Source of the DNA: Methanotrichaceae archaeon
Lineage (GTDB): Archaea > Halobacteriota > Methanosarcinia > Methanotrichales > Methanotrichaceae
Direction of reading: 5' to 3'
DNA length: 49,658 nt
Assembly: GCA_963803145.1 (NCBI GenBank)
Contig: CAWDLW010000004.1
Location: forward strand, 1 to 49,658
Shown: piece by piece, positions 2,295 through 47,015 of the stretch
How positions within the stretch are numbered: the first letter of the stretch is position 1
How the letters are laid out: every line of letters starts with the position of its first letter
Program-made: the position numbers and the translations under genes
Notes under the pieces: model-generated
Told to the model about the DNA's origin: nothing
The model's database searches: none
The model's input: the letters and a program-made list of their open reading frames with translations, nothing else

Positions 2295-4283
2295 ATGGCT
2301 GAGCAAAAAGCAACAACATCTGTTCTACTTGAGGAAACAAGAATATTCGAGCCGCCAAAGGATCTCGTTGAGAACTCCAATGTCATGAAGTGGATGAAGG
2401 CCAAGGGATTCAAGAACGAGCGCGAGATGCGTGCCTGGACCGGCCAGAATTTCATAACGTTCTGGGGCGAGATGGCAAAGACCTATGCCGATTGGTTTGA
2501 GCCCTGGGCACAGACCCTAAACTGGGTGCCGCCCTATGCCAAGTGGTTCGTAGGTGGCAAGTGTAACGTTGCCTATAATGCTGTAGATAGGCATGCCAAG
2601 TCAGCCAAGGCTGATAAGGTAGCTTACATATTCGTCCCCGAGCCCACCGACCAGCCCACTCAGAAGATCACCTATGGCGATCTGGCCAAGAGGGTCAACA
2701 AGCTTGCCAATGGTCTAAAGAGCCTGGGAGTTGTGAAGGGCGACAGGGTCAGTATCTACATGCCCATGATCCCCGAGACTCCAATTGCAATGCTCGCATG
2801 CGCCAAGATAGGTGCCATCCACTCGGTAGTGTTCTCTGGATTCTCCTCAGGTGGCCTGAACAGCCGTGTTCTGGATGCTGAGTCCAAGGTAGTTATTACC
2901 ACAGATGGCTTCTTCAGGCGCGGCAAGCCACTTCCACTCAAGCCCAATGTGGATGAGGCAACTGCCAATACTCCATCCGTCAAGAACGTAGTGGTAGTAA
3001 AGAGAGCAGGCATCGACGTGCCCATGAAGGCAGGCAAGGATATCTGGTATCATGACCTGGTAGCCAAGCAGTCCGATGTATGCGAATCTGAGAAGATGGA
3101 TGCTGAGGACAGGTTGTTCATTCTGTACACATCTGGAACAACCGGCAAGCCCAAGGGTATCGAGCACGTCCACGGCGGATATTGTGTCACTCCTGCCCAG
3201 ACACTCGCTTGGGTATTCGATATCAAGGACAACGATGTCTGGTGGTGTACAGCCGATGTTGGATGGATCACCGGTCACAGCTACGTGGTCTATGGACCAC
3301 TCTGCCTTGGTTGCACATCAATGATCTATGAGGGATCTCCTGACTATCCAGACTTCAGCAGGATGTTCAAGATCATCGAGGATAATAAAGTCAGCGTCTA
3401 CTACACGGCACCTACAGCCATCAGAATGTTCATGAAGGCTGGAGATAAGTGGCCAAAGATGCACGACATCTCGAGCCTGCGCCTACTAGGATCCGTCGGT
3501 GAGCCCATCAACCCAGAGGCATGGATCTGGTACAGGAACAACTTCGGTGCTGGCAAGCTTCAGATCATGGATACCTGGTGGCAGACTGAGACAGGATGCT
3601 TCCTCGTATCGCCATTGCCCATTACTCCACTGAAGCCCGGATCCCCAACATTCCCGCTTCCCGGATTCAACATTGATATCCTGGATGAGGATGCGAACCC
3701 AGTTCCACCAGGCTCCGGAGGCAACATCGTCAGCAACACACCCTGGCCAAGCATGCTCCGTGCCTTCTTCAGAGATGAAGTCAGGTACAAGAAGGAGTAC
3801 TGGCAGATGTACTGGGAGATTCGTCCTGGAACATACCTGGCTGGCGATAAGGCCACCAAGGATAAGGATGGATACTTCACCATACAGGGCAGGATCGACG
3901 ATGTGCTGAAGGTAGCAGGACACAGGATCTCCAACGCTGAGGTCGAGTCCGCTCTGGTCAGCCATCCAAAGGTTGCAGAGGCTGCAGTCATAGGCAAGCC
4001 CGATGAGGTCAAGGGCGAGGTCATAGTGGCTTTCGTCATACTCAGGACCGGAATGGAGGAGTCCGAGGATCTCAAGAAGGAGCTGGCCAAGCACGTCAGG
4101 ACAGTCCTCGGCCCAGTTGCATACCCAGAGGTCGTATACTTCGTCAAGGACGTTCCAAAGACAAGGTCCGGCAAGATCATGCGCCGTGTCATCAAGGCAA
4201 AGGCTTTGGGCAACCCGACTGGCGATATATCCGCTCTGGCTAACCCTGAGTCTGTGGATGCTATTCCGCTCATAAAGAAGTAA
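2295..4283 (+). CDS. acs: Acetyl-CoA synthetase (AMP-forming), copy 2
   Basis: 662 aa with all ACS motifs; aggagg RBS at 2283-2288. Confidence 0.98.
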
Positions 4284-4674: not shown

Positions 4675-6663
4675 TTGGCTGATACAGCGAAAACTGCTGT
4701 TCTACAGGAAGAGACTAGAATCTTCAATACTCCGCAGTGGATTATCGAGCACTCCAATGCATATCAGTGGATGAAGAAGAAGGGCTTCAAGACTGAGAAA
4801 GAGATGCGTGAGTGGTGCTCCGTAAACTACGTAGACTTCTGGGACGAGATGGCCCAGAGTTACGCTGACTGGTATAAGCCTTACACTCAGATTCTTGATG
4901 AGTCAGGCAAGCCCTACTACAAGTGGTTTACCGGCGGCAAGATCAACGTAGCCTATAACGCAGTTGACAGGCATGCACGATCGGAAAAGAGGAACAAGGT
5001 TGCATACTACTTCATAGGCGAGCCAGTTGGAGACACAAGGACCATCACCTACTATGAGCTCTATCGTGAGGTCAACAAGCTAGCAAACGCTCTGAAGAGC
5101 CTGGGCGTCGGGAAGGGTGACAGAGTAGTCTGCTATCTCCCAATGATTCCAGAGCTGCCCATGACCATGCTGGCCTGCGCCAAGATAGGTGCAATTCATA
5201 CGGTAGTCTTCTCAGGATTCTCCTCAGGCGGTCTGAACAGCCGCGTTAACGATGCTGAGGCCAAGGTAGTAGTCACATCCGATGGCTTCTTCAGGCGTGG
5301 AAAGCCACTTCCACTCAAGCCCAATGTTGATGAGGCCCTGAAGACGGCACCCTCAGTCAAGAAGGTAGTTGTAGTAAAGAGGACTGGCGTGCAGGTGCCC
5401 ATGACAGAGGGCAGGGATATTTACTACGATGAGCTTGTGAAGGGTCAGTCTTCCCAGTGCGAGACAACTCAGCTTGATCCCGAGGACAGGTTATTCATTC
5501 TCTATACATCTGGAACAACTGGCAAGCCTAAGGGTATCGAGCATGTCCATGGCGGATATGCCGTCGCTCCGGCTCAGACTCTATCTTGGGTGCTGGATGT
5601 ACACGATGATGACGTCTTCTGGTGCACAGCCGATGCCGGCTGGATCACAGGACACAGCTACGTGGTATATGGCCCGCTTTGCCTTGGCGCAAGCAGCATC
5701 CTATACGAAGGCTCCCCGGACTTTCCAGACCTGGGACGCTGGTGGTCCATCATTGAGCAGTACGGCGTCAACGTCTTCTACACTGCACCTACTGCCATTA
5801 GGATGTTTATGAAGACCGGCGAGGAGTTCGTCAAGAGGTACGACCTCTCCAGTGTCAGGGTGCTGGCCTCTGTAGGCGAGCCTTTGAACCCTGAGGCATA
5901 CATCTGGTTCAGGAAGAATATCGGTGCTGATCAGTCCCCAATCATTGATACATGGTGGCAGACTGAGACAGGATGCCACGTCATTGCTCCTATGGTTATG
6001 ACACCTGAGAAGCCCGGATCAGTAGCATTCCCGCTTCCAGGATTCAACACCGATATATTCGACGAGGATGCGAACTCCGTTCCACTGGGCTATGGTGGCA
6101 ACATCGTCCAGAAGACTCCCTGGCCAAGCATGCTCCGTGCCTTCTTCAGAGATGAAGTCCGGTACAAGAAAGAGTACTGGGAGATGTACTGGCAGACCAA
6201 GCCCGGAACTTACCTTGCTGGCGATAAGGCAACCCGTGACAAGGACGGCTACTGGTGGATCCAGGGCAGAATCGACGATGTGCTGAAGGTAGCTGGACAC
6301 AGAATCTCCAATGCTGAGGTCGAGTCCGCAGCCGTATCCCACCCGAAGGTCGCAGAGGCAGCCGTCATAGGTCAGCCCGATGAGGTCAAGGGCGAAGTCA
6401 TAGTGGCTTTCGTCATTCTTAAGACCGGTGTCCAAGAGAGTGAGGATCTAAAGAAGGATATATCCAAGCACGTCAGGACAGTCCTCGGCCCAGTCGCCTA
6501 CCCAGACAAGGTCTACTTCGTAAAGGATGTGCCAAAGACAAGATCCGGCAAGATCATGCGCCGTGTCATCAAGGCAAAGGCTCTTGGCAAGGAGACCGGC
6601 GATCTGTCTGCTCTGGCCAATCCAGAATCCGTAGAGAACATTCCGCTCATTAACAAGAAGTGA
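4675..6663 (+). CDS. acs: Acetyl-CoA synthetase (AMP-forming), copy 3 (TTG start, most divergent of the three)
   Basis: 662 aa with all ACS motifs; aggagg RBS at 4662-4667. Confidence 0.98.
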
Positions 6664-6779
6664 GCAAATTTTCTCTCTATTTTTTAACGAGATTCAATTA
6701 AGTAAAATAATTCTTTGCAGGCTTTTGCCCGTAAATTCGGATGAAATACGTTTTATATCCCAGCTGCCGAAGGTTATAT

Positions 6780-7115
6780 GTGAGACGCAGAAAGAACGCA
6801 CAGAAGTCAAGAGAAATCTCAATAGAACGCATGCATCGGCTCTTTGAGCTTGCTTCTACAGAGCACAAGTTACATCCCGATAGAAGTGATAGATATGTTC
6901 AAATTGCTCGCCATATCAGCACCCGCATGAGGATCCGGATGCCACACCAATTAAAGAGTCAATTCTGCAAGCATTGTGGCTGTTACCTTCCTTCATCAGG
7001 CGTGAGAACTCGACTACATGATGGAGTACTTTCCGCCACCTGCCTGAGATGTGGAGGACAGGCAAGAAGGCCATATAAAACCGGAATGCCAATGTCAGTA
7101 ATAGAAGGAAAATAG
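6780..7115 (+). CDS. rnp4: Ribonuclease P protein component 4 (Rpp21)
   Basis: IERMHRLFELA...RYVQIARHISTRMRIRM plus zinc ribbon CKHC...CLRC and RRPY. Probable GTG start at 6780 (ORF track starts at 6741). Confidence 0.92.
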   Translation: MRRRKNAQKSREISIERMHRLFELASTEHKLHPDRSDRYVQIARHISTRMRIRMPHQLKSQFCKHCGCYLPSSGVRTRLHDGVLSATCLRCGGQARRPYKTGMPMSVIEGK

Positions 7116-7131: not shown

Positions 7132-8928
7132 ATGAGCTCCATTGATGCTTCGGGCCTCCGAGGTATTCGCCCACTTTTATGTAATCCTGCAAATATGCCT
7201 AGCATTGCCAGCGCCGACGATAGAGATGCTTTGGAGAAGCTGCTGGGAGACGTATTGCAAGATCACCACTTGAGATGGGCTGCAGCCCGCAGACTTGGAG
7301 ATATCGGCAATCCAAAATCAACAAGAGCATTATGTATCGCTCTTGAGGATAAATATCCTTCAATTAGGTTTGAGGCTATTACAGCTCTCGGCAAGATCGG
7401 GAGAAAGCCAGCCTGCGAAGCTCTCTCAAATCTGCTGGATTGTGAAAGCCAATATGTTCGTGGCATGGCTGCCAGAGCATTAATAAAAAGTTTAGGGGTG
7501 CCAGATTCCCGCGAGGAGAATCTTGGGAAGCTTATGAAGCTCATCTGCTCAGGAGATATGCGAATCAAGAGAGCAGTTCTCGATATAGGTCCCCCTTCAA
7601 TCAATCTTCTAATAACGCGGCTCAAAAGCAGCTCATTTACAGAGCGCCAGGAAGTTGCCGCTACAATAGCATTGCATATCCGAGAACTCATAGATCAGCT
7701 CCCCCCTGGAGAAACCATTTTTTCATGGCTGGCAGGACAGGGCTTCTCCGTAAAGTCTATAGCAGATCTATATAGTTTTAGGATCTGCCGCATAGGCAAG
7801 ACTGTGGATAGGGCTGAGAACTCTGGATTTGATGTCATCTCAAAGACGTTATGCCGGGATAGATTAATACTGAGATTATTGCCGGAAACTTTTGACCTTC
7901 CCGAGCCTGATCCTGAGCCTGAAATAATGACTATCAATCTAAAGGATCTTATTTCAGAACATGCCTCAGGTGAGGTCGAAAAAGTGGGCAGAACACTTGT
8001 GGTGCCTTTGGGCAGTGCATGTCTCGCTATCAAGATTTGCATGAATGACGGAGATAAGGTAAAGCTTTCCGCCGAAGCCCGAATGCAGAGAATGCTTGCG
8101 ACCTTCGAACTATCAAGCAGGCTGCCTCACCCTTTGGGCGGTCTCTTCAAGTTACAGGGGCTTCCTGATTGCGTTCAAGATCTTAAGCTCTCGGAACTTT
8201 CGGGATCCCATGCCATCTGCTATATCACAGATAGCGATTATTTCCGGTATCTGGGTGATCCAGCTATATCTATAGAAGAGATGAAGTTGGCACTAGCATC
8301 ATGCGCTATGGACCTCGGAACGCTCATGAGAAGCGGCATAATTCACACATCGCTCATACCCTTATTCCATAACAGAGAACGCCCTGCAGGAGATAGCACA
8401 TATCGCTGGAATAGAAAAGTTGCAGGTAGGCTTGATAACTGGCTTGAGTCTTGCAGATATCCTAACCTGAGGCTATCTGGGATAGCTGATCTGGAGCATA
8501 TCGAGATTCAAACTGAAATTCCCGCCTGGGTATTACAATCTTATGCCGGAGAGCATCTTTTGAGCATGAGCCTAGTTCTAGGAAGCTACTTTTGCAGAAG
8601 AGATAGGTTTGATGAGAATGCACTGGGCTCCATCTTAAAGCACTGCTTCCTAAAGTACTGCTGCTCCATGGGAGGATCATCCGATATGGTTTCTGAATGC
8701 CTTTCTGAATGTATTGATTGGAGGGAGCTAGCTGGAAGGATGGCTGAGGAGATGGAGTCACATGCTACCCGCAAAACTGAGACTGGCAAAGTCGAGACTC
8801 GCGGAGCCAAGACTGTATCCCATCTTGGTCGCCCCAATGGATACTTCCCAATACCTGAGCTAATAAGGGCCATCCATATAACCTCGCTCTTTGCAGTGCT
8901 CGAGCTTCAGGCAGGCAGTCGATGCTGA
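7132..8928 (+). CDS. HEAT-repeat protein fused to a SidJ-related pseudokinase (putative polyglutamylase)
   Basis: N-terminal HEAT/PBS-type repeats (LRWAAARRLGDIG, IRFEAITALGKIG, VRGMAARAL). C-terminal motifs GRTLVV, AIK, LFHN, GRLDNW, YPNLRLSGIADLEH and NGYFP match my recollection of SidJ catalytic motifs. Confidence 0.8.
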   Translation: MSSIDASGLRGIRPLLCNPANMPSIASADDRDALEKLLGDVLQDHHLRWAAARRLGDIGNPKSTRALCIALEDKYPSIRFEAITALGKIGRKPACEALSNLLDCESQYVRGMAARALIKSLGVPDSREENLGKLMKLICSGDMRIKRAVLDIGPPSINLLITRLKSSSFTERQEVAATIALHIRELIDQLPPGETIFSWLAGQGFSVKSIADLYSFRICRIGKTVDRAENSGFDVISKTLCRDRLILRLLPETFDLPEPDPEPEIMTINLKDLISEHASGEVEKVGRTLVVPLGSACLAIKICMNDGDKVKLSAEARMQRMLATFELSSRLPHPLGGLFKLQGLPDCVQDLKLSELSGSHAICYITDSDYFRYLGDPAISIEEMKLALASCAMDLGTLMRSGIIHTSLIPLFHNRERPAGDSTYRWNRKVAGRLDNWLESCRYPNLRLSGIADLEHIEIQTEIPAWVLQSYAGEHLLSMSLVLGSYFCRRDRFDENALGSILKHCFLKYCCSMGGSSDMVSECLSECIDWRELAGRMAEEMESHATRKTETGKVETRGAKTVSHLGRPNGYFPIPELIRAIHITSLFAVLELQAGSRC

Positions 8929-8998: not shown

Positions 8999-9421
8999 CT
9001 AATCGTATCCAATGAACTGGAATATCAGCTCCTTTTTATCTTCGATAAGCTCCTTCTCTCGGCTAAGGATTTCCTTTACGAGGGGCACAATGGGCTTATT
9101 ATCGTCCCAGTTCCTGACCAGTATATCCTCGCTGCCAGACTCTTTCATAACCTGATCTGCAACAAATGCACAGAAGAAGATATCATCTACATAGCCAATA
9201 GGGCCAACCTCTTCCTCCGGTATAATATCTGCAGGTGCTATAAAGTAAGCTATTGCTGCAATCACCAGCGGCGAAAGCCTCTCTGGCAAGGCAGGATCAT
9301 CCAGGAGTTTGGTCATAAGCCTGTAGAGCGCCGGGGCCTCATGGATAAGCTCACTGAAGTCGCCCTCATAACCTGATACATCCTCTTCAAGCAGTAGATC
9401 GAATCTCTTCAATTTCACCAC
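8999..9421 (-). CDS. YkvA/DUF1232 family protein
   Basis: Signature AAIAYFIAPADIIPE...GPIGYVDD. Confidence 0.85.
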   Translation of the reverse strand: MVKLKRFDLLLEEDVSGYEGDFSELIHEAPALYRLMTKLLDDPALPERLSPLVIAAIAYFIAPADIIPEEEVGPIGYVDDIFFCAFVADQVMKESGSEDILVRNWDDNKPIVPLVKEILSREKELIEDKKELIFQFIGYD

Positions 9422-11978: not shown

Positions 11979-12030
11979 GGTACCACACAGAATATTGATC
12001 TTTGAATTATACTTTTGACTTCTAGTTAAC

Positions 12031-12636
12031 TCAACGATCTTTCTGAGTCATCTTCTCTCGCAGCTCATCTATATTCAGCGGATTGAGCGGTTTGCAGATG
12101 ATCTCGCTAACTCGTAGATTTCTCATATGCTGGGTTGAGGCTGCCTGCATCACCAGAGCAGTATCAGACCCTCTGCCAGTCCCAGCTATCGCTATCACCT
12201 TCTCGCCGCTTGCAATGTGACCACCATCTGTAGCCATTAGAACTATCTCAAAGCATACTTTGACTCCCTGACAGAAGCAGCGCAGCAGGTTTGCCATAAT
12301 GGTTCCATTATTTGATCCATAAAAGTCATCAGTATGGAAGAGCATTGTGCCGAAGTGAACTTCATGTCCCGATTCTCTCAGGGTTTTTACTAGCTCCTGT
12401 GGAAATGCATTTGTGTCTCTATGAAAATCGAACTGATGAGGCACTATAATCAATTTGACCCCACTATCTTTAAAGAAGTCCATGGCCAATTTAGCCGTTG
12501 AGCCTGTAGTGGATGCAATTACTAGTTTCTTTATTCCTGAACCTTTTAGCCTTTCCTGAACCAGCCTGAAGACCGCCTCAGTATTCTCAGGCTTAATATC
12601 TTCAAAGTAGACTACCTTGCTTTCCATGATTACCAC
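12031..12636 (-). CDS. Pyruvate kinase C-terminal-like (alpha/beta) domain protein, archaeal stand-alone family
   Basis: VIASTTGSTA, QGVKVCFEIVLMATDGG and AIAGTGRGSDTA. Confidence 0.85.
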   Translation of the reverse strand: MVIMESKVVYFEDIKPENTEAVFRLVQERLKGSGIKKLVIASTTGSTAKLAMDFFKDSGVKLIIVPHQFDFHRDTNAFPQELVKTLRESGHEVHFGTMLFHTDDFYGSNNGTIMANLLRCFCQGVKVCFEIVLMATDGGHIASGEKVIAIAGTGRGSDTALVMQAASTQHMRNLRVSEIICKPLNPLNIDELREKMTQKDR

Positions 12637-12690
12637 AGAATTATGTAAGTTCTCTAAACTTTTATATATGCTTGGATGCTAATTTTACTA

Positions 12691-12882
12691 CTAACTTAGA
12701 AGACATAGAATTATCAGGTAATTGAGGAACTTTAGAGACTCAAGACATCCAACTATGGCCTCCTTTATGTTATCTAGAGCCTCCTCAATAGTATCTCCTT
12801 GAGAATGACAGCCGGACAGTGCTGGGCAGCTGACTATATAGCCTACTTCCTCTGCATCCTCCAGGATAACCTTGAATTTCAT
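12691..12882 (-). CDS. hicB: Type II TA HicB-family antitoxin
   Basis: MKFKVILE...GYIVSCPALSGCHSQGDTIEEALDNIKEAI. Confidence 0.88.
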   Translation of the reverse strand: MKFKVILEDAEEVGYIVSCPALSGCHSQGDTIEEALDNIKEAIVGCLESLKFLNYLIILCLLS

Positions 12883-13109
12883 GGATATATATGTCCCATC
12901 GCGGGATGAAAAAGCTTCCGAGCAGCCAGGAATTTCCAGAAAGCCTTATACGGCGAGATCTGAGAATATCCCGCAATCATCAGGGAAGCTTTTGGCTCTT
13001 TCGCTGGCCGAAAGGTCTTCCTTGACAAGCTCCTTATCAAGGCATTCTTCACTGAATTTGCGAAATGCCTTTAAGTTTTCAGCACAGAATAGCATTGGTT
13101 GATCAAGTC

Positions 13110-13211
13110 ATGGAAAAGCTGCACCTGCCAATTCTCATTGAAGTAGACGAGGACGGCCGATATATAGTTAGCTGCTCGCTCTCCAAGGGCTGTCACTCCT
13201 GGGGCGAATAG
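13110..13211 (+). pseudogene. hicB: Truncated second HicB-family antitoxin, cut at the IS end
   Basis: My translation is MEKLHLPILIEVDEDGRYIVSCSLSKGCHSWGE*. The stop falls within the IS terminal repeat, where 'TIEEAL' should follow. Confidence 0.75.
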
Positions 13212-14502
13212 TGCTAACACTTTTCTCATTTACCCCTCTTCGTGACCTACCAGGAAGGTATAGCCTTTTTTCCGATATTTAGAGAATTCGCTAAAGAAAC
13301 TAACTTTGTAGCTAAGAAAACTATTGGGACAACCTTTTTTTCGACACTAGGCTGTGTATATTGATGTATTTTGTTCAATCCTAAGGTATTTTTAGCTATA
13401 TTGAAGAAAACTTCTATTTCAAGCCTATAATACTTAAAACTCTTCCATTGATAGATTAAATTCTTAAATTCGTTAACAATATGAATCCATTTTTCTAATT
13501 TATATTTATTGTGAGAAAATGCATCTAAAGGCGGATTAAGTTCGTAAATTATTTGATCTAAATTGGTGTTATTCCTTGGATAAATAATCGGAATCAAGTA
13601 AAATTGATTGATTAACGCATGATAATTCTTTTTTGACGTAAAGCCTTTATCACAGATGATTAAATCGCCTGAATGTATTTTTCTTGAATTGAAAAGCCTT
13701 TCTACAAAAGGAATAAGTATTTTTGAATCATTAGGACAATCTTTATGAATTTCAAATCCAATAAGATTGTCATCAAGATCTATAGCCAAAATTAACTTAA
13801 ATCCTACGAAATAGCCTATGGGAGGGTAATAAGACCATTTATATTTTTTATTCTTCTTACCTATTTTATCCTTGTTTCTCCAAATATTAAGGTCAATTAC
13901 GATTGGAGAGGTATCAATAATTATAGTTCTTTGCTTTTTATCTCTTTTACGGCGTTCAGACTGGAATGTTTTGCTAAAAAAATGGAACAATGAGTCATAA
14001 CTTAAATCAAACATAGATTTATAGACTTTTTGCGCATTTATCGTTGAATCAATATCCAATAGCTTTTGTAACTCTAAATTCATATTTATTTCTGAAATTA
14101 TAGAGGAAATATCTCTTTCAAACAAGCTTGATAGGACTATAATTTTTATTGCTAATACGAAATTATCTATATCATATATTTTTAACTTGGATGCAATTTT
14201 CCTAGATCGCTGAGATCCGATAATTTCAAGTATTTTGAGCACTATTATCCATTTTGGGTGCTTATAATTAGGAATCAGAGGAGATAACATCAATAATACC
14301 TTCCTTTGGTGGTGCAACCTAGTTATAAGCGCCCAAATTACTTAAAATTAACTATTGAAAGTTTAATTCCAGATCAAATCAAGACCCATAATTTGTTTTC
14401 TAATCAAAGTTAAAATTTCTAAGTAAATTTAAATTAAATTGATAGAATTAGTTTGTTTTAAAGAGAGTTTGAAGAGGGGTAAAAAAGGATATTAGCGATA
14501 TT
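13207..14502 (-). mobile_element. AT-rich insertion sequence (~1.3 kb, DDE transposase, IS4/IS5-superfamily-like)
   Basis: Imperfect terminal inverted repeats: aatagtgctaa..tttacccctcttc (13207-13241) and gaagaggggtaaa..ttagcgatatt (14471-14502). GC content drops abruptly. Confidence 0.75.
13247..14290 (-). CDS. DDE transposase (DDE_Tnp_1-like)
   Basis: IIIDTS, GFKL, ND, ICDKGF and RLEIEVFF motifs. ATG at 14290 follows an aggaaggt RBS (ORF track starts at 14317). Confidence 0.88.
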   Translation of the reverse strand: MLSPLIPNYKHPKWIIVLKILEIIGSQRSRKIASKLKIYDIDNFVLAIKIIVLSSLFERDISSIISEINMNLELQKLLDIDSTINAQKVYKSMFDLSYDSLFHFFSKTFQSERRKRDKKQRTIIIDTSPIVIDLNIWRNKDKIGKKNKKYKWSYYPPIGYFVGFKLILAIDLDDNLIGFEIHKDCPNDSKILIPFVERLFNSRKIHSGDLIICDKGFTSKKNYHALINQFYLIPIIYPRNNTNLDQIIYELNPPLDAFSHNKYKLEKWIHIVNEFKNLIYQWKSFKYYRLEIEVFFNIAKNTLGLNKIHQYTQPSVEKKVVPIVFLATKLVSLANSLNIGKKAIPSW

Positions 14503-14542
14503 AATCGAAAATGTCATATGAGAATGTAGAATGTCAGATAAA

Positions 14543-14568
14543 AATTGCCTGGCCCGTTTTAGGCAATT
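14543..14568 (-). terminator. Hairpin plus T-tract downstream of the 14642 gene
   Basis: aattgcct-N10-aggcaatt, followed by Ts on the minus strand. Confidence 0.45.
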
Positions 14569-14641
14569 ACCAAGAAGCTCTTCAGCGATCTCGATAATTA
14601 AGCCGCTACGGGCCTAAAAGTATCCAGATACAAATAGAGTT

Positions 14642-14893
14642 TTACTTCTTTTCCATGCCTTCTAGCTGGCGCTGAAGCTCATCCCGGCGCTGCTTGATAT
14701 CGTCTTTGGAAGCCTGTGTTGTTGCTTTCTTCATATCATCATCGAGAGCCTGGAGCTGTCCTTTTACACTTCGCATCCTCTCTTCGCTGCTCCAATTCTC
14801 TTGCCCTGGTTGGCTCTTCTGTCCCATTCGGCTTTCTTCCATTCCAGACGATCTGCTCCCTTTTGCGGGCATGTTCTCTTTTCTCTCTTGCAT
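14642..14893 (-). CDS. Small hydrophilic coiled-coil hypothetical protein (start may be 14872)
   Basis: Highly charged Q/E/K/S-rich ORF with an AT-rich promoter region upstream. Confidence 0.6.
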   Translation of the reverse strand: MQERKENMPAKGSRSSGMEESRMGQKSQPGQENWSSEERMRSVKGQLQALDDDMKKATTQASKDDIKQRRDELQRQLEGMEKK

Positions 14894-15222
14894 ATACTTA
14901 GATATGTCCTTAACGTATATAAATATTGTTATATGTCCATTACTATAATCGGTCGCACAGCTATCGATTTATTCTATTCTTAAATAGATATCATTTCCAC
15001 TATTGTGGGTTTTTCTACGATATCATTGAATTTATGTAAATATTAGATTATTTTAACTACGCTAATTTAGCAGACTTTTGTCCTACCCAATGGTAAAAGG
15101 AATGCTTGCATTATCTCTATGTCGGACACGAGGATAGTTAAACTGCAGCACTCGGATACAAGCAACAGGAGTATTACGATAAAATAATGAAAAATCTGAA
15201 GCCCAATTGGGCTTCAATGCTC

Positions 15223-17316
15223 CTACCAGATTATCGGCCTCTGATCCTCTGGCCTGTACAGCTTATCTCCTGGCTTGATCTCCGGGAATGCCTTGTAGAA
15301 CTCCGGTATATTAAACAATGCACCATTGACTCTGAACCTACTGGGTGCGTGTGGATTTGTCTGCACCAATGTTCTCAGAAATTCGTTTCTTACGGACTCT
15401 CTCCATATCTGTGCATAGCCCAAGAAGAATCTCTGGTCGCCTGTAAAGCCATCGATCTTTTCAGGCTCTCCTTTTAGAGACATATGGTAAGCGTGGTAGG
15501 AGATAGTCAAGCCTCCGAAATCCGCGATATTCTCTCCCAGAGTCAAATTACCGTTGATATGAAGATCCGGCAGCGGCTTAAAATTACTGTACTCATCTAT
15601 TAGGATGCGAGTGCTATTGTTGAACTTATCCGCATCCTCCTTTGTCCACCAATCGGTCAGGTTTCCGTCTTTATCGTACTGTCTTCCCTGGTCATCGAAG
15701 CCATGAGTCATCTCATGTCCTATCACCGCTCCGATGGCGCCATAGTTGATGGCATCATCTGCATCTCTATTGAAGAAGGGAGGCTGCAGAATTCCTGCAG
15801 GGAAGATTATAGTGTTTTTCATCGGGTCATTGTAGGCATTTATCGTTTGAGGTGGCGTGAACCATAGGTCGCGGTCTACAGGCTCTCCTATTTTGTCCAT
15901 GCCGCTGTACCCATGATTGAACTCGAAGTTTCCAGCCCTAAGAACGTTCATCACATAGGAATCGTTCTTTATTTCGAGTCCTGAGAAATCTCTCCACTTG
16001 TCGGGATAGCCAACTTTCACATCCATAGTATCAAGCTTCTCCAGCGCCTTTTCCTTAGTGGAATTTCCCATCCAGGTTAGGTTTCTGAGACGAGATCTGA
16101 ATGCAGCCTTCAGGTTGCTCACAAGCTCTTTCATCCTTGCCTTGGACTCTGGATCAAAATATTTCCTAACATATGTCTGTCCGATTGGCTCACCAAGGAA
16201 TACGTTCTCGGTATCAAGAACTCTCTTCCAGCGTGGCTCCATCAGCTCCTGTCCATTTAGCTTTCTGTCATTGAAATCGAATGATTCGTTCTCAAAGTTG
16301 GAGCTAAGATATTGGGCTGTTGCCGATATCAATTTCCAGCGCAGGAAAGTCTTCCAATCTGCCACACTCTCATTTTGCATCATCGCTCCGAGTTCTTTGA
16401 TAAACGGCGGATTCAAGACATTAATCTCTTTGATCTCAGGATAGCCTAAATCTGCGGTGAACCTCTTCCAGTCAAATCCAGGAGCAAAGGCTGCAATCCC
16501 TTCCATGGTCATTCTATTGTATGTCTTGACTGGGTCTCTGTTCTCTACATTCGTAAAGGATGCGTTTGCAAGCCTCGTCTCCATTCTCATGATAGTCTGT
16601 GCGTTCTTTGAAGCGGCTTCTGGCGTATCACCGAGAAGAATGAACATCTTTGTTACGTGCTCTACATATTCCTTCCTTGTCTTTATTGAATCATTATCCT
16701 GCCTGAAGTAGTAATCTCTATCAGGCAGGCCGAGCCCGCTCTGGAAAAGAGTGGCCATCATCATTTTGGTGTTCTTAGGATCTGCATCGGCGTAGAATGA
16801 GAAGAAGGGGTCGATGATATAATAGCTGGTGAGATGCGCTGAGTCATTCTGAACATCTGAGATGGTCGAAATATTATCTATACGGATGAGTTCTTCTTTG
16901 AGGGATGAGATTCCCTGTCTGTCAAGCGTGGCATTATCTAGTCCTACGCGATAAAACTCGCCTATCTTTTGCTCTATGCTTCCCTTCTCAGCAGTAGTAT
17001 TGTTTGCTGCCTCTTCAACCAGCTCCCTGACCCGCTCATCTGTTTTATCTCCTACAATCACAAATTCACCGTAGCGGGGCTTATCGGAAGGCACTGGATG
17101 ATTCTTTATCCATGCTCCATCGACGTACTCATAAAAATCATCTCCAGGCTTTGCCGAAAGGTTCATGTTAGCAGGATCAAATGCTTTAGTGCTATTCTGG
17201 TCTTTAACTGAAACAGCATCTGATGTAGTCGCATGAGTGCTGGGAGCTATAAAAATTAACAAGATGAGCAGAATAAGGCTGAATGCATCCTGCTTCAAAC
17301 GCAGGGACATGATCAA
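15223..17316 (-). CDS. Secreted M13 family (neprilysin/PepO-like) zinc metallopeptidase
   Basis: Signal peptide, PGDDFYEY, INAY, GHEMTHGFDD, GENIAD and PHAP. Confidence 0.95.
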   Translation of the reverse strand: MIMSLRLKQDAFSLILLILLIFIAPSTHATTSDAVSVKDQNSTKAFDPANMNLSAKPGDDFYEYVDGAWIKNHPVPSDKPRYGEFVIVGDKTDERVRELVEEAANNTTAEKGSIEQKIGEFYRVGLDNATLDRQGISSLKEELIRIDNISTISDVQNDSAHLTSYYIIDPFFSFYADADPKNTKMMMATLFQSGLGLPDRDYYFRQDNDSIKTRKEYVEHVTKMFILLGDTPEAASKNAQTIMRMETRLANASFTNVENRDPVKTYNRMTMEGIAAFAPGFDWKRFTADLGYPEIKEINVLNPPFIKELGAMMQNESVADWKTFLRWKLISATAQYLSSNFENESFDFNDRKLNGQELMEPRWKRVLDTENVFLGEPIGQTYVRKYFDPESKARMKELVSNLKAAFRSRLRNLTWMGNSTKEKALEKLDTMDVKVGYPDKWRDFSGLEIKNDSYVMNVLRAGNFEFNHGYSGMDKIGEPVDRDLWFTPPQTINAYNDPMKNTIIFPAGILQPPFFNRDADDAINYGAIGAVIGHEMTHGFDDQGRQYDKDGNLTDWWTKEDADKFNNSTRILIDEYSNFKPLPDLHINGNLTLGENIADFGGLTISYHAYHMSLKGEPEKIDGFTGDQRFFLGYAQIWRESVRNEFLRTLVQTNPHAPSRFRVNGALFNIPEFYKAFPEIKPGDKLYRPEDQRPIIW

Positions 17317-26784: not shown

Positions 26785-27345
26785 ATGGATTCAACAGAGG
26801 ATTTAACGGACGAGCACAAGGAAATAGCAGTCTTCTTGGCTATAGTGGAGGAGATCGCCAATAGGTTAGCATCGATGAAGGGAGCAAGTGCTGAGGATCT
26901 ACAGTGGCTCTTTGAGTTTAACAGGGACTTTGTGCTGAGAGTGCACCTTAGCAAGGAGGAGAGCCTATTTTTTCCTGTTCTTCGAGACATTGGTGTGCCT
27001 GAAGATCCAGTTAATGCTCTGACTGGAGACCATGATGCTTTAAGGGGTATCGCCAAAATAATCCGAGGCTTGATCGAGGATTATAATGATGGCGGTGACG
27101 GAGATGTAATCTCAGATCTAGTCGATATGTTGAGATTTTACTCTGCGTTTATGAAGGACCATATAGAGACTGAAGAAACCATATTCTATCCTATAGTTGA
27201 TAAATGCGTCTCAAAAGAGAACGATATGAAGCTTGCCGCTAGATTGAAATGCTCTGGAGCTGAGCGGATCGGCATCGGCAGAGATGAAGAGCTGCGTGAG
27301 ATCCTCGATAGCTTAAAGCTGTTTTATGGAATATCGAATGGGTGA
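26785..27345 (+). CDS. Hemerythrin-domain protein
   Basis: EH, HLSKEE, DH and HIETEE di-iron motifs. Confidence 0.88.
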   Translation: MDSTEDLTDEHKEIAVFLAIVEEIANRLASMKGASAEDLQWLFEFNRDFVLRVHLSKEESLFFPVLRDIGVPEDPVNALTGDHDALRGIAKIIRGLIEDYNDGGDGDVISDLVDMLRFYSAFMKDHIETEETIFYPIVDKCVSKENDMKLAARLKCSGAERIGIGRDEELREILDSLKLFYGISNG

Positions 27346-27451: not shown

Positions 27452-30400
27452 TCAGACTGACCAAGGCTGGTTAGGAGCTATCTGTACAGAATCCCCCGTA
27501 CCGGTGTAAATATATTTGACATATAACGGAGAGCCCTCTTGAGGCGTCCCAGCCAACGTTTCCTTAAACTGTTCCTCAATGGGCATGGTATCGATGACAG
27601 ATGGATCACAGTAGACCGCCGCGCCTAACGTTTCTGGTTCTTGATAGATCTTTGCCCAATCCGTCGCGCAAATCGACCAGTTGGTTTCAGGTCCTCTGGC
27701 AGGATTGCCGTTCTCATCGTAGTAGCATGCTTCGTAGAATTGATCATTTGCCGCAAAAAAGGTGTCAGGCACCTGCTCGAAGACGATAGGTATCCTCAGA
27801 GTTTCTCCGGGCTGCAGCGATGGGATAGCCACTGATTTTTGCACGAAGACGTGGTTCGGTTCGGATATCTCTAAAGTACCAGGCAAAGTCGGCTCGCCCT
27901 GGCTGTTCGTGACCTCAACTATCATGTAGGCCGGATGATACTGGTATGCTGGATCGGGCTTGAGCCCATTGGGGCCACCAGATCCAGAATAGTCGATGAA
28001 TGCATTGACTCCTTGCTTGACGGTATCAGGGTCAATCTGGTTCGCCAAATCGGCCATACCAGGGTCTACTCCAGCTTGAGCAAGTAATGTTTTTGTGAGG
28101 TAATCGGAGCCCATACTGGCTAACTGATCGAAGTTCGGTATACTTGGTGGAATGCCCATTGAGGCTAAACCTGTATCTATGCCAGTACTGACCCATGGAC
28201 CCACCGCACTAGAACAATCAGTATTCCCTAAGCAAATTGCATTGCTTATGACATCCACACAGACACTTTTGATGTCGTCCCAAGCTGTGGATACCCAGTT
28301 AACAATGCTCGCAAAGAAGTCCAAAATGGATTCAAAGAAATCCACTACCTCATCCCACCAGCTTTCATCCTTTGGTTTGGTGTACAAGTGATCGCCTTTT
28401 TTCCATAATGAACCTTCTGGGAAGAAGATCTGGCTACCCATTTTAATATCCTGAGGAGGATTATCTGATGTAGCGATGAAGTGATATTCAGCTTCTGGAT
28501 CTGCATTTTGTATCGGCGAGTAGGACAAAATCTTGACATCCGGTTGGAATACGGTAACAGGTACAGGTAATGCTATCTTTGGCTGCGTCTGCTGGCCATA
28601 ATTTATTATCCTTGTGGGCGATGAGTAACCTATGAAGGTGCCCGGACCACTTGGAATCAGGGCAACCACTCGGAGGTAATACTTAATCTGCAGTGGCTTG
28701 TTCGGGTCCCTGGGGGGCGCGAACTTGGAGAAGTCTATGCTGAACTCATGGCCTGATGCATATTTATCGGAGGAGAGGCCTGCAATCTCTCCGGCGCATC
28801 CAACCGATTTCATATCCGACTGATCAACGTTCAGCTTACCTCTGGCCACCAGGCCTTGTGGGTTCATCAGTTCCTCATTATTGAAGGGAACCTGAGAGAT
28901 CTGCCATTCAGCTGATGTTAGATTGGTAAGATTCGAGCTCCAGATGCACCATCTATTGAGGTCCTGGCTCCAGTCAACGTATGCATCTGATTCGAGATAC
29001 CAATTGTTCGAGCATGGGAACTCACCACCCATTCGGTACGGCCTTACGGAACCGTCTGCTACTGCAAGCTTGATGTTGGAACCGAACAAAGCAGATTGCA
29101 AGAAGGCCCATTTTGCCAGTTCAACAATTGGCTTCCCTACGATCACTTCCTTTTCGTCCGAGGGTAGACCCGTACAGTTGCCGTTGGAATCAAGAGGTAC
29201 TACACGAACATAGTAGGTGCGTCGCTCCTGTGGCAGGGCATTTATCAAAGCATCTTCCGAAAGAATGGCTGGTATTGATTGGGAGACCCCTGTGGCAACG
29301 AGTCCTTTGTTTATTATTGTACCCTGAGATCCTATGATTCCAGCAATGTTCTTTGTGACTGTAGCGTTTACGCTTCTCTGTTGACTGATCTTGAATTGAG
29401 GAGAGATGGATTTAGTCGTGAGTATCGGATTGAGGATCCTGCGACTTGCCATCAGGCCGCTAATGTTTTTGGTGATAGCGGCTTTATTGGAAGTGGACAC
29501 CATCATTGCAGGTCTGGAATCGATCTGCTTGACGGCGTCATCAGCCCATGATATGAAATTCTTGTTAGCTTGGACAGCCTGAACGTTCGAAGTATCCGTG
29601 TGTTCCAGATTTAAAGCAGCAACATTTTTGAATGAAGCCAGAATACTCTTTTGGAATATGAGATAAGGCTTGGACAGGCTCCAGCGATTAGCAATCTCTT
29701 TCTGAGTAGGTATGAACTTGCCGAAGTCTATAGCAAACTCATTTTCATTGGACCCTAATATGCCTTGAGCCAATAACCCTGGTGGATTGGCCCAGTTCTT
29801 TGGATCATATGGAAAAGGCATTATGGAGACCTGCCATACAGCTGATGCTGGAGGTATCATTGTAGTCGGCAACCATTTGAATCTGGCAGTGAGGTCGTTG
29901 CCACTTGAATCGATGAATGAGCTTGTACTATCTGCAAAGTCCAGATTTGCCGTTGTGTTAACCCCCAGCTTGGACATTGCAATCAACTGGAAATTCCTCC
30001 AGTCAAGGTGCTTCAGATTGACTACTGATCGCGCACTTCCTTGAATCACGGGATTATGCTTCTGAACTGTCGTTGAAGGCTCCTTATTTGGGGTCTGGTT
30101 AAGCATCGGCAGGATTCGCTTGCCAGCTATGGGCAACTCAACTTTTCCTGTCTCGCCCTGAGATACAATTGAAGGCGTTTTTATAGTGCTTGGACGAACG
30201 GAATTTTTAGTTTGAGCCTGGATTAGGGTAGCATTCCAGCTATAATCACCCTGGGCGCCAGTCTGGGTGAATGTGCCTTTCATTGTGTATATGCCATCAC
30301 TGGATCGTGATACTAGACCTGTATACTTCTGAGACCATTCGTTAGGCCTAACTCGATTGAACTCTACCCTTCCACCTTGATTTATGGTGCCTTCAATTGA

Positions 30401-30730
30401 ATCCACTGGTTCATTGCCGTTAGTTCGGGTCATCGTGCCGCGTATAACATTATTCGTCTGCGTCAGGTCAAGAACAAATTGAAAGATGCTATTGCCGATC
30501 ATATCCCACTTGCCGGAGATATTGTATGTTGGGTTAGATATTCCTTTCAAATCTGACACATAGGAAGAATTTTGAGCCGTGGCGGCAGGAAAACCACTAG
30601 CTTTTGTCAGTATTGCTGGCGAGGCCTTTATTATCGGTGCTTTTGCCATTGTTGGTGCATCATTTGTCAGTGATACCGATGCCGAAGTTATGATGAAACA
30701 CAAGCCCAAGCAAAGTAATAATGCCCTCAT
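27452..30730 (-). CDS. Large secreted multidomain hypothetical protein (1092 aa)
   Basis: Signal peptide, ggggaga RBS, internally repeated beta domains and an amphipathic Trp-rich helical segment. Confidence 0.8.
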   Translation of the reverse strand: MRALLLCLGLCFIITSASVSLTNDAPTMAKAPIIKASPAILTKASGFPAATAQNSSYVSDLKGISNPTYNISGKWDMIGNSIFQFVLDLTQTNNVIRGTMTRTNGNEPVDSIEGTINQGGRVEFNRVRPNEWSQKYTGLVSRSSDGIYTMKGTFTQTGAQGDYSWNATLIQAQTKNSVRPSTIKTPSIVSQGETGKVELPIAGKRILPMLNQTPNKEPSTTVQKHNPVIQGSARSVVNLKHLDWRNFQLIAMSKLGVNTTANLDFADSTSSFIDSSGNDLTARFKWLPTTMIPPASAVWQVSIMPFPYDPKNWANPPGLLAQGILGSNENEFAIDFGKFIPTQKEIANRWSLSKPYLIFQKSILASFKNVAALNLEHTDTSNVQAVQANKNFISWADDAVKQIDSRPAMMVSTSNKAAITKNISGLMASRRILNPILTTKSISPQFKISQQRSVNATVTKNIAGIIGSQGTIINKGLVATGVSQSIPAILSEDALINALPQERRTYYVRVVPLDSNGNCTGLPSDEKEVIVGKPIVELAKWAFLQSALFGSNIKLAVADGSVRPYRMGGEFPCSNNWYLESDAYVDWSQDLNRWCIWSSNLTNLTSAEWQISQVPFNNEELMNPQGLVARGKLNVDQSDMKSVGCAGEIAGLSSDKYASGHEFSIDFSKFAPPRDPNKPLQIKYYLRVVALIPSGPGTFIGYSSPTRIINYGQQTQPKIALPVPVTVFQPDVKILSYSPIQNADPEAEYHFIATSDNPPQDIKMGSQIFFPEGSLWKKGDHLYTKPKDESWWDEVVDFFESILDFFASIVNWVSTAWDDIKSVCVDVISNAICLGNTDCSSAVGPWVSTGIDTGLASMGIPPSIPNFDQLASMGSDYLTKTLLAQAGVDPGMADLANQIDPDTVKQGVNAFIDYSGSGGPNGLKPDPAYQYHPAYMIVEVTNSQGEPTLPGTLEISEPNHVFVQKSVAIPSLQPGETLRIPIVFEQVPDTFFAANDQFYEACYYDENGNPARGPETNWSICATDWAKIYQEPETLGAAVYCDPSVIDTMPIEEQFKETLAGTPQEGSPLYVKYIYTGTGDSVQIAPNQPWSV

Positions 30731-42617: not shown

Positions 42618-44213
42618 CTATTCCTCCTCTGGTTCCTCGTGGTGCTTCACAGTTACCTCTGCAGTCACCTTCGACACATACCAGAAGACCGCCAGTAAGA
42701 AGGCAAGAAGTATCCCCCATACTATGAAGATGCTTCCCAAAGATATTGGTGTAGGATCATTCATTCCTCCCGGCACAGGTATAATCTTCCAAATGGTCCA
42801 AGGGGCTCTGGCCGATTCCCTGACAAACCCCATAGTCATCACAATCCACATTCCTAGAACCCCTGCGAAGATGCCGGAGATACGAGAACTCCTGTGAAGG
42901 TTGCCCCAATCCTGCTCTTTGGCAACGCCCAGAGTAAAGACATCTATTATGACCACGATAATGCTTACTACGGATAATACGGCGAGGGCTATGTATTTGT
43001 AAATCATCTTGCCTAATGGATTGATCCAGGCTGTGGGATCATCCCTGAACGCGGCACCAAGCCAACCCGGGTTTACCAATATAAAGGCTGAGATCGCTGA
43101 AACTGCCAGTAAGGCCTTAAGTGTAAGGCTTATGTTCTTAGTTTCGATCCGATCCAATATTGCCCCCCTGCGGTCGATAAAATAAACTACTGAGGTCATT
43201 ATGAGGATTGAAAGCAGCGCCGCCATCCATAGCATCTCCCAGGCCCTAGGACCATGCATTATCATCAGGAAGGCCGTGGGACTGGCACCTATTATCTGCC
43301 TCATGAAGAACACACCTAGGATGGGCTGAACTGCGAGTCCTGCCAGGCCCCAGGCCATGCCGTAAGATCCCGACCAGTCCCAATACTTCTGAGCATTTGG
43401 ACTGCCCTTCTTATCCTGATAGTGGAACATGGATAATACGGCTATAAGGAAGCCGAAGTAGGATATGGCCGCTGCCAGACTGTGGAACTGGAGAGCCCAT
43501 AGGGTTGGGTTGAACCACCATGAGAGTAGTGTTCTATAGTCCATTGTCAGAACGCCAATGTAGCCCCATGTAATCTCAGTATTATTAGGCGTCAACATTC
43601 CTGATCCCATCATCTGTATCATTAAAGCCTGGAAGAAGGATGCGATGGCATAACCGAGGCCTATGAATAAGTGCGATGAGGGTCTCATGCTCTTCCATGT
43701 GTAGAAATATAGCCAAAGGAAGAAAATTTGAGCGCTCCATAGTAGAAGCGTTGCGAAAATGGGCCACCAATAGATATGAAAGATATTAAGCATGAAGACA
43801 GGATAAAGTGAGTAAATGAAAAGTAGTGCTGACGCACCAAAGGTAGCACCGACTGAGAATAGTATAACGCTGAAGAAGGCCATGGATTTGGCCAGATTTC
43901 TATAGCGCTCTCTTCTGGATCTCAGGAAAAGGAACTCAGTTATCACAATTATCCAGGACCCGCCCAGCGCTAGGTTCGCCAGTTGGATGTGGCCTGTTAG
44001 GGTTATAGCCATGAATATGGATCTTCCTTGGCTTCCCAAATCTACAGTTTGAAGGGGCAGCTGATTTTCTTGCAATGGCGGTTTTACCGCGTCAAGATCG
44101 CCCGCACTGATGGCAGTTGAAGATATAAACGCTCCCTGTTGTGGAGCGATATACAGGATCAGCATCAGGAAGAAGGCCACCAGCAATAGTACTAAGGCTG
44201 CCAGCTTTATCAT
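42618..44213 (-). CDS. Cytochrome bd superfamily subunit I-like protein, paralog 2 (CydA'-like)
   Basis: GHIQLAN, FHSL, GKM and MGFVRESARAPW; proton-channel Glu residues replaced. ATG at 44213. Confidence 0.8.
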   Translation of the reverse strand: MIKLAALVLLLVAFFLMLILYIAPQQGAFISSTAISAGDLDAVKPPLQENQLPLQTVDLGSQGRSIFMAITLTGHIQLANLALGGSWIIVITEFLFLRSRRERYRNLAKSMAFFSVILFSVGATFGASALLFIYSLYPVFMLNIFHIYWWPIFATLLLWSAQIFFLWLYFYTWKSMRPSSHLFIGLGYAIASFFQALMIQMMGSGMLTPNNTEITWGYIGVLTMDYRTLLSWWFNPTLWALQFHSLAAAISYFGFLIAVLSMFHYQDKKGSPNAQKYWDWSGSYGMAWGLAGLAVQPILGVFFMRQIIGASPTAFLMIMHGPRAWEMLWMAALLSILIMTSVVYFIDRRGAILDRIETKNISLTLKALLAVSAISAFILVNPGWLGAAFRDDPTAWINPLGKMIYKYIALAVLSVVSIIVVIIDVFTLGVAKEQDWGNLHRSSRISGIFAGVLGMWIVMTMGFVRESARAPWTIWKIIPVPGGMNDPTPISLGSIFIVWGILLAFLLAVFWYVSKVTAEVTVKHHEEPEEE

Positions 44214-44374
44214 ATGGCCCATTCCCTCTCTACATGAGCATTGATTATGAGACCACTATCCTTTGGAGTGATTGACAATGCGTGAAACCCCTTATGAACA
44301 GAGATGTCATCTCTAGCGCTGCTATCCGCAGTATATTCTTCCGCCTCATTAAATGTCAATCTCGAATCGCACAT
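44210..44374 (-). CDS. 54-aa soluble protein between the two CydA-like genes
   Basis: gaggtg RBS 7 nt before ATG at 44374; its TGA overlaps the next ATG (ATGA at 44210-44213). Confidence 0.55.
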   Translation of the reverse strand: MCDSRLTFNEAEEYTADSSARDDISVHKGFHALSITPKDSGLIINAHVEREWAI

Positions 44375-44385
44375 CGAGTGACACC

Positions 44386-45990: not shown

Positions 45991-46154
45991 CGTTTCATAT
46001 CCCGAAAATCCATTTACTATTAGCAATATTATGGGCAGTAAGTCATTATAAATTTTATGGTAACCTCTAACCAAACCAATATGCCAAAAATGAATGGACT
46101 CAATAAATTCTAAGGACGATTCATTCAGAATTCTCAGGTTTAGAATTTTAGAGT

Positions 46155-46886: not shown

Positions 46887-46960
46887 TCCAACCACCTCTA
46901 AATATTTCTATACTCTATAGTATTAAATTTAACTCGCCGGAGTGGAGAGGACGGAGCGGG

Positions 46961-46987
46961 AAGTCCCCGGCAAATTTCCGGGGACTT
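46961..46987. repeat. GC-rich perfect hairpin
   Basis: aagtccccgg-caaattt-ccggggactt. Confidence 0.8.
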
Positions 46988-47015
46988 TATTTGCCTGTAT
47001 TTTAGGGCATGTATT

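Follow-up and report, generated by a model that had tools for sequence, protein, structure and literature searches.

What does a HEAT-repeat gene of a methanogen encode beyond its HEAT repeats? The question is raised by a gene at positions 7132–8928 of a 49,658-nt stretch of DNA (the window) from a Methanotrichaceae archaeon (NCBI GenBank assembly GCA_963803145.1, contig CAWDLW010000004.1). Public records call the members of its clade only "HEAT repeat domain-containing protein," and because these names mention HEAT repeats alone, the enzymatic domain is invisible in the annotation. A first-pass annotation, made from the window without database searches, had read the product as a SidJ-like pseudokinase with N-terminal HEAT repeats, and as possibly representing an uncharacterized archaeal glutamylation system. 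The first part of that reading holds up, with sequence, profile, and fold comparisons in agreement. For the second part, the residue set and fold lend support, with glutamylation itself a predicted activity; the group is not new, having already been recorded in print.

The open reading frame (ORF) is a real gene, with purifying selection acting on both domains, because the start (MSSID) is common to the query and both same-genus orthologs examined, and because the ratios of nonsynonymous to synonymous substitution rates (dN/dS) against them are 0.31 (588 codons) and 0.26 (590 codons), with the HEAT and kinase-like parts alike. Pfam finds HEAT repeats only, as HEAT_2 (PF13646; E 1.4e-14 at residues 43–117; 54.5 bits, above the gathering threshold of 27.7) and HEAT_PBS (E 6.4e-7). 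This part also matches alphaRep/HEAT structures, both by sequence (E 5.6e-38) and by fold (Z 17). PBS-lyase-type HEAT proteins (PF13646/PF03130; alphaRep) correspond to residues 28–190 but have no kinase-like domain, and a bilin-lyase function is not implied by the likeness.

The remainder of the protein leads to SidJ. NCBIfam family NF033874 ("SidJ-related pseudokinase") is matched at E 3.3e-48 over profile positions 122–360 of 507, at 164.8 bits, below its 300-bit cut-off, and NF033873 (Legionella SidJ family type IV secretion system effector polyglutamylase) at E 4.6e-7 and 28.6 bits, below its cut-off of 400. A single-sequence phmmer search of PDB sequences with the C-terminal 345 residues recovered SidJ chains alone (four of four distinct sequences, E 8e-7 to 2.5e-6). 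With a profile of 73 clade members the match to SidJ reached E 7.4e-25, SidJ being the sole non-HEAT PDB family matched; with bacterial relatives added it reached E 1e-29 over SidJ residues 339–543, together with a weak extra segment pairing HLG..N with SidJ 727–733.

Compared by hhalign, the clade and 46 bacterial NF033874 members align over 410 columns (query residues 147–594; probability 100, E 1.1e-73), which argues that both groups inherited the kinase-like domain, the linker, and the final HEAT repeat from a common ancestor. Fifteen columns are invariant over 149 aligned sequences, and the core motifs GR[ST], K, E, IHT, PLFHNR, Y.W, GRLD.W, SC.YPN, G..D.EH, and HLG are shared with NF033874, a hypothetical equivalog consisting here mostly of Desulfobacterota proteins, as are the invariant residue set and the D-x-E-H motif. 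Unlike NF033874, the archaeal clade has some 120 extra N-terminal HEAT residues and is without two C-lobe segments and an "RR" in the pocket loop. Clade members score 165–210 bits against the NF033874 profile (P0014, 179; P0092, 210), and true members 489–627. A maximum-likelihood tree of 94 domains sets the 18 clade rows apart in a single split (SH-like approximate likelihood ratio test, 96); the tree is unrooted, so it does not give a direction of transfer. The protein is a member of a Methanotrichaceae-specific sister clade to the uncharacterized NF033874 family.

Fold comparisons give the same answer. An AlphaFold2 model built on the 149 aligned sequences has a mean predicted local distance difference test score of 90.5 and a predicted template modeling score of 0.90. 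In a Foldseek search, as the first-pass annotation had proposed, SidJ entries take the first 14 places (E 8e-15 to 1e-12). VIA-align superposes model residues 154–594 on SidJ 222–756 with Z 32.8 and a root mean square deviation of 3.9 Å over 394 residues at 22% identity, and the next matches are HEAT/alphaRep proteins. A Foldseek-independent search of 48,161 representative chains also put SidJ first (Z 32.3), followed for the C-terminal domain by SelO (6EAC, Z 10.5), RioK1 (10.1), Bud32 (10.1), haspin (10.0), and APH(3'') (9.5), with MTR kinase within 9.5–10.1. In the ESM Atlas, the matches were unnamed "hypothetical protein" clusters at 0.94–0.95 and one aminoglycoside-phosphotransferase-named cluster at 0.93. 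Because SidJ stands at Z 32.8 and 32.3 against about 10 for other kinase folds, the C-terminal domain has, as modeled, a SidJ-type protein-kinase-like fold. The likeness also takes in the end of the SidJ N-terminal domain, represented here by a linker subdomain: the VIA alignment begins at model residue 154 (SidJ 222), and the hhalign match to bacterial NF033874 at residue 147.

Features of the SidJ-like gene, its product, and its immediate neighbors (positions in the window; clade, 73 sequences; all aligned, 149 sequences)
Feature	Positions	Strand	Residues	Basis or conservation
HEAT–SidJ-like fusion gene	7132..8928	+	598 aa	Open, stop codon included; ORF list, translation
About five PBS-lyase-type HEAT repeats (ten helices)	7213..7701	+	28–190	Pfam, structure matches, model helices 28–188
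Helical/beta linker subdomain, predicted counterpart of the C-terminal part of the SidJ N-terminal domain	7702..7941	+	191–270	VIA and hhalign ranges
SidJ-type protein-kinase-like domain (predicted)	7942..8925	+	271–598	N-lobe 271–372, C-lobe 373–598
Gly-rich-loop Arg, SidJ R352	7987..7995	+	G286-R287-T288	GRT 73/73 clade; R287 invariant in 149
Beta3 Lys, SidJ K367	8032..8034	+	K301	HMMER alignment; 73/73 clade, invariant in 149
AlphaC Glu, SidJ E381	8074..8076	+	E315	Alignment; 73/73 clade, invariant in 149
SidJ Q486, place of PKA D166			S407	HMMER alignment
SidJ H492 (migrated nucleotide pocket; stabilizes acyl-adenylate)	8368..8370	+	H413	73/73 clade, invariant in 149
SidJ Y506 (migrated pocket wall)	8401..8403	+	Y424	73/73 clade, invariant in 149
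SidJ R522 (donor glutamate binding)	8428..8430	+	R433	71/73 clade; 76/76 bacterial relatives
SidJ Y532			Y443	HMMER alignment; clade Y 60, F 12 of 73
SidJ N534 (metal/phosphate ligand; PKA N171)	8464..8466	+	N445	73/73 clade, invariant in 149
SidJ D542 (metal-binding Asp; PKA D184), with H456 in place of SidJ D545	8488..8499	+	D453-L-E-H456	Both 73/73, invariant in 149
Probable SidJ N733 equivalent (positions target Glu, acyl-adenylate)	8836..8838	+	N569	Weak profile segment
RNase P protein subunit Rpr2/Rpp21	6741..7115	+		Pfam Rpr2 E 2.1e-11
Convergent DUF1232 gene	8999..9421	−		Pfam DUF1232 E 1.4e-8

The active-site residues can be read from the same alignments. The motif series on which the first-pass annotation based its reading lies where it was described, with GRTLVV at residue 286 (nt 7987), AIK at 299 (nt 8026), LIPLFHN at 408 (nt 8353), GRLDNW...GIADLEH at 432–456 (nt 8425–8499), and G..NG.FP at 566–573 (nt 8827–8850). 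HMMER alignments pair these motifs with the SidJ residues named, apart from the last, which in SidJ is GGYN followed by R rather than an "NG" and shares only its Asn (N733/N569). Nine residues are invariant over the 149 sequences, bacterial relatives included, at a mean column identity of 24% (R287, K301, E315, H405, H413, Y424, N445, D453, and H456); also invariant, and common to the clade and NF033874, are G432, W437, P444, G450, and G473. The equivalents of the catalytic set of SidJ (K367, E381, H492, Y506, N534, D542, and R522) are all invariant or at least 90% conserved. In the mutants described by Sulpizio et al. (2019; PMC6858067), K367A, D542A, and H492A abolished glutamylation and N534A impaired it severely, and D545A, E381A, and D489A had little or no effect. 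Set beside the conservation in the clade, these effects indicate that the residues most important in SidJ are those fixed in the clade of this protein. The first-pass annotation had also pointed out that the last Asp of the SidJ DxxD motif is a His here; this is so, and it is general rather than specific to the query, because every one of the 149 non-Legionella relatives aligned has the His, and the D545A change has little effect on SidJ.

Such a set of residues could belong to a conventional protein kinase phosphorylating Ser, Thr, or Tyr: the fold is there, with the beta3 Lys, the alphaC Glu, the catalytic-loop Asn, and the DFG-type Asp. This is very improbable, given that the catalytic-base Asp of the HRD motif is absent (S407 in the query, Ala in 68 of 76 bacterial relatives), that the catalytic loop carries, as in SidJ, a long insertion where PKA has four residues (here 37 residues between S407 and N445, bearing H413, Y424, and R433), and that the SidJ glutamylase far outscores the other kinase folds (Z 32.8; RioK1, Bud32, and haspin are at Z 10). 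The missing Asp could also point to a protein without catalysis, a HEAT scaffold whose kinase-like domain merely binds nucleotide or a partner, as many pseudokinases are described as doing in a review (PMC12599244). The gene is dispensable, as might suit such a role: among 101 Methanotrichaceae genomes, including that of the window, it was found in 30 (E 1e-90 or better), distributed over nine of 16 genera, with the remaining matches HEAT-only. SidJ, an enzyme, is however likewise without this Asp, having Q486 at the position of PKA D166 (Sulpizio et al., 2019; PMC6858067), and K301, N445, D453, and H413 would hardly be expected to stay invariant in 149 otherwise divergent sequences, which makes a non-catalytic role improbable.

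The closest known systems include the pair SidJ/SdjA of Legionella pneumophila, calmodulin-dependent kinase-fold glutamylases (PDB 6OQQ, 6K4K, 7MIR, and 7PPO). The archaeal protein is like SidJ in its predicted fold, from the end of the N-terminal domain through the kinase-like domain, in its missing HRD Asp, in its long catalytic-loop insertion for a second pocket, and in having equivalents of R352, K367, E381, H492, Y506, R522, Y532, N534, D542, and probably N733. Unlike SidJ, it is a chromosomal archaeal protein and not a secreted effector, and its N-terminus is a canonical HEAT array in place of a SidE-binding domain. The insertion is 37 residues rather than 47, with a shorter R500 loop, and D545 is replaced by the invariant His. 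The chain also stops some 35 residues past the N733 equivalent, with no C-terminal domain. No IQ motif was found by regular expression in any of the 73 clade sequences, as the first-pass annotation had reported for the query; the chains end a median of 35 residues beyond the HLG motif, and the structural alignment stops at SidJ 756–762. The short tail after HLG..N and the missing IQ motif together indicate that the calmodulin-binding C-terminal domain is absent.

On balance, the protein is likely to be an active, calmodulin-independent, ATP-dependent protein adenylylase and ligase of an acidic amino acid (glutamate being the likeliest), in which the HEAT array would serve as target adaptor or regulator; independence from calmodulin is proposed because the calmodulin-binding tail of SidJ is absent. 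It would be a cytoplasmic enzyme of two parts, the HEAT array (28–190) rigidly joined to the SidJ-type kinase-fold domain (about 154–598). By analogy with SidJ, whose kinase-like site adenylylates the target Glu (Osinski et al., 2021; bioRxiv 10.1101/2021.04.13.439722), the kinase-like cleft (R287, K301–E315, N445, and D453) would bind ATP and Mg and move AMP onto a carboxylate of the target protein. According to the same preprint, H492, Y506, R500, and N733 of SidJ stabilize the acyl-adenylate, R500 contacting the alpha-phosphate and Glu, and R522 positions the donor glutamate. A second pocket formed from the 37-residue insertion (H413, Y424, R433, and N569) may similarly bind the acyl-adenylate together with a free acidic amino acid, glutamate being the likeliest; attack by the amine of this amino acid would give an isopeptide bond. 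The HEAT array would be a target-recognition or regulatory module, and the target presumably an endogenous protein.

The second pocket is also where a different outcome is conceivable. The enzyme could stop at nucleotidyl transfer, as an AMPylase like SelO/YdiU, or ligate some nucleophile in place of glutamate, either a different amino acid or an amine. SidJ auto-AMPylates, and SidJ with the R522A change still adenylylates its target (Sulpizio et al., 2019, PMC6858067; Osinski et al., 2021). In addition, the migrated pocket is remodeled relative to SidJ: the R500-type Arg is not alignable, and the N569 position is variable (48 of the 73 clade sequences have N there, 16 have G). SelO/YdiU are AMPylating pseudokinases that use the kinase fold for AMP transfer, and SelO is the next best kinase-fold match after SidJ (Z 10.5 over 209 residues). 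This likeness is at the level of the fold only, with 10% identity over those residues, and SelO is without the migrated second pocket. The loss of the second half-reaction is also hard to square with the conservation of the donor-Glu Arg, R433, throughout nearly all the clade and its bacterial relatives, and of H413 and Y424 without exception. Taken together, an enzyme ending at AMP transfer or using another nucleophile is rather unlikely, and ligation of glutamate, or another acidic amino acid, remains the preferred reading. The ATP-grasp glutamylases of the TTLL group are possible functional analogues, being described as carrying out ATP-dependent addition of Glu to protein carboxylates. RimK is another ATP-grasp protein glutamylase. 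Both differ from the present protein in having an unrelated fold and acyl-phosphate rather than acyl-adenylate chemistry, and neither gave a sequence or structure match in the searches here.

Several points weigh against an active glutamate ligase. The SidJ-to-query residue pairs come from HMMER alignments and range offsets, not from model coordinates. The pairing of N569 with N733 in particular comes from the weak profile segment, with an offset consistent with the VIA ranges (model 592 = SidJ 756), and the position is only partly kept within the clade, as given above (it is N in 74 of 76 bacterial relatives). R500 has no alignable conserved Arg, the loop between H413 and Y424 being three residues shorter than that between H492 and Y506, and the clade has no counterpart to the "RR" placed opposite SidJ E499-R500 in bacterial relatives. 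SidJ needs calmodulin for ATP competence (Osinski et al., 2021; bioRxiv 10.1101/2021.04.13.439722), so an activator may be absent here, and the biochemistry on proteins of this kind comes from Legionella members alone. In 71 of the 101 family genomes the gene was not detected, and it is therefore dispensable. Nor does the neighborhood help: the synteny of the flanking Rpr2 and DUF1232 genes is that of a single family, hence not independent evidence for a functional link; among the bacterial loci there is no conserved neighbor, the commonest neighbor cluster occurring in 11 of 61 (ORFs of 65 loci were clustered, and the gene is present as an ORF in 61); and neither in bacterial nor in archaeal loci does a conserved neighbor indicate a substrate.

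Within the databases searched, the clade is confined to one family. A word-indexed protein search gave 142 proteins at E ≤1e-3, with the best 120 of the 142 listed. The best 100 after the query (P0002–P0101, of 142) score at least 205 bits, 94 of the 100 have HEAT Pfam domains, and the taxa named among them are exclusively Methanotrichaceae, Methanothrix, Methanosaeta, or Methanocrinis. An exhaustive search of 50%-identity representatives gave 359 proteins at E ≤1e-3. A scan of GTDB species genomes gave 413 relatives, the best 80 of which are 15 Methanotrichaceae and 65 bacterial loci, 63 of the latter with Desulfobacterota-type names. In a sample of 401 genomes from the phylum, including just 12 other Methanotrichaceae, the kinase-like domain was found in three: the window's own, one other Methanotrichaceae genome, and one of another family with a true NF033874 member. 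This last (L139, 1036–2508, minus strand, genome G326) is a 490-aa ORF matching NF033874 in full at 488.8 bits, the sole match outside the Methanotrichaceae among the 388 other phylum genomes; its bin is 85% complete and may include contamination.

HEAT repeats precede the SidJ-like domain in the relatives P0147, P0217, and P0139 as well. The domain also occurs within very long metagenome proteins of 1,346–5,545 aa (P0126, P0128, P0137, P0139, P0191, P0192, P0215, P0217, P0237, P0251, and P0257), some of which add HEAT, TPR, methyltransferase, metallophosphoesterase, or DUF7790 domains. Of the 30 Methanotrichaceae copies, two run off the end of a contig and one is interrupted by an in-frame TGA. 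Copies that are split or have in-frame stops, G073:C56 (L008/L030), G085:C78, and G074:C155 (one TGA; one TGA and one TAG), may be decaying genes or assembly errors.

The start of the gene is 16 nt from the stop codon of the Rpr2 gene. Of 20 related loci, 13 have Rpr2 as the immediate same-strand upstream neighbor and one more has it 2.9 kb off; seven of the 20 have the DUF1232 gene downstream. The true Rpr2 start is probably later than the first ATG of the ORF, as the upstream stretch has stops in a same-genus ortholog and orthologs align from about residue 15. In two of five examined genomes in which no SidJ-like gene was detected, Rpr2 directly adjoins DUF1232; the gene is therefore present or absent at one fixed site, a pattern consistent with a single early acquisition in the family followed by repeated losses. 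A housekeeping block (CofC, CofE, aIF2-beta, L10e, GatD, and Ham1) is found again and again farther upstream. CofE, the F420 gamma-glutamyl ligase, was considered as a functional clue and set aside: it lies four to five genes upstream in eight loci, but on the opposite strand and in the housekeeping block, and its proximity is put down to synteny. Acetyl-CoA synthetase was likewise dropped as a clue to the substrate, being found only in the window and the same-genus locus L027 and in none of 19 other related loci. In the window, three acetyl-CoA synthetase paralogs with AMP-binding, AMP-binding_C, and ACAS_N domains stand in tandem directly upstream of Rpr2 (33–1928, 2295–4283, and 4675–6663, all on the plus strand). 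A defense role was rejected as well, since PADLOC gave HEAT-repeat matches alone for the query and none for the bacterial member P0119, Rpr2, or DUF1232.

Several features elsewhere in the window are recorded for completeness. A low-GC stretch at 12000–16000 (0.38–0.39, against about 0.47 elsewhere) includes a DDE transposase ORF (13247–14317, minus strand), next to an M13 peptidase gene (15223–17316, minus strand), and may be an inserted element. A 1092-aa ORF (27452–30730, minus strand) has no Pfam match at E 1e-5. A possible oxygen-response cluster in this methanogen genome lies at 42618–47507 on the minus strand, where a pair of neighboring genes similar to cytochrome bd oxidase subunit I precedes one gene with a cupredoxin domain and one for a hemerythrin. 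An additional hemerythrin gene is at 26785–27345.

The first-pass annotation had remarked that SidJ relatives exist outside Legionella, which agrees with the published record. In Sulpizio et al. (2019; PMC6858067), the legend of one figure names a Methanosaeta harundinacea protein as homologous to SidJ. This protein, KUK97762.1, is a putative member of the present clade by name and species; its accession did not turn up in a look-up of sequence clusters, and two loci from metagenome-assembled genomes of M. harundinacea (L054 and L057) carry clade members. The preprint of Osinski et al. (2021; bioRxiv 10.1101/2021.04.13.439722) states that archaeal and viral homologs exist, without the IQ motif and SidE, and probably with other substrates and activators. 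Within the library searched, a full-text literature search found no paper joining SidJ to Methanothrix, for Methanosaeta only the Sulpizio paper and its own preprint, and no functional study of archaeal SidJ-like proteins. The gene is thus a further member of a kind already noted in print. What has been gained is a residue map, the limits of the clade, a fixed genomic site, and natural strains with and without the gene for comparison.

Kinase-fold glutamylation is known biochemically solely from the Legionella effector pair. If the clade does consist of active calmodulin-independent enzymes, this chemistry would be operating inside a free-living archaeon, and the protein would offer a small, soluble, non-pathogenic model for the SidJ mechanism. 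A bolder proposal, possible though on present evidence somewhat doubtful, is that this would be the first kinase-fold glutamylase acting on the proteins of its own organism: calmodulin-independent, HEAT-guided, and adenylylating and then glutamylating a carboxylate of a Methanothrix housekeeping protein. The recurrent same-strand pairing with Rpr2 makes RNA processing or translation a candidate area for the target. Were this so, protein glutamylation would be a regulatory modification in archaea, in a group, Methanothrix/Methanosaeta, whose members are major acetate-using methane producers.

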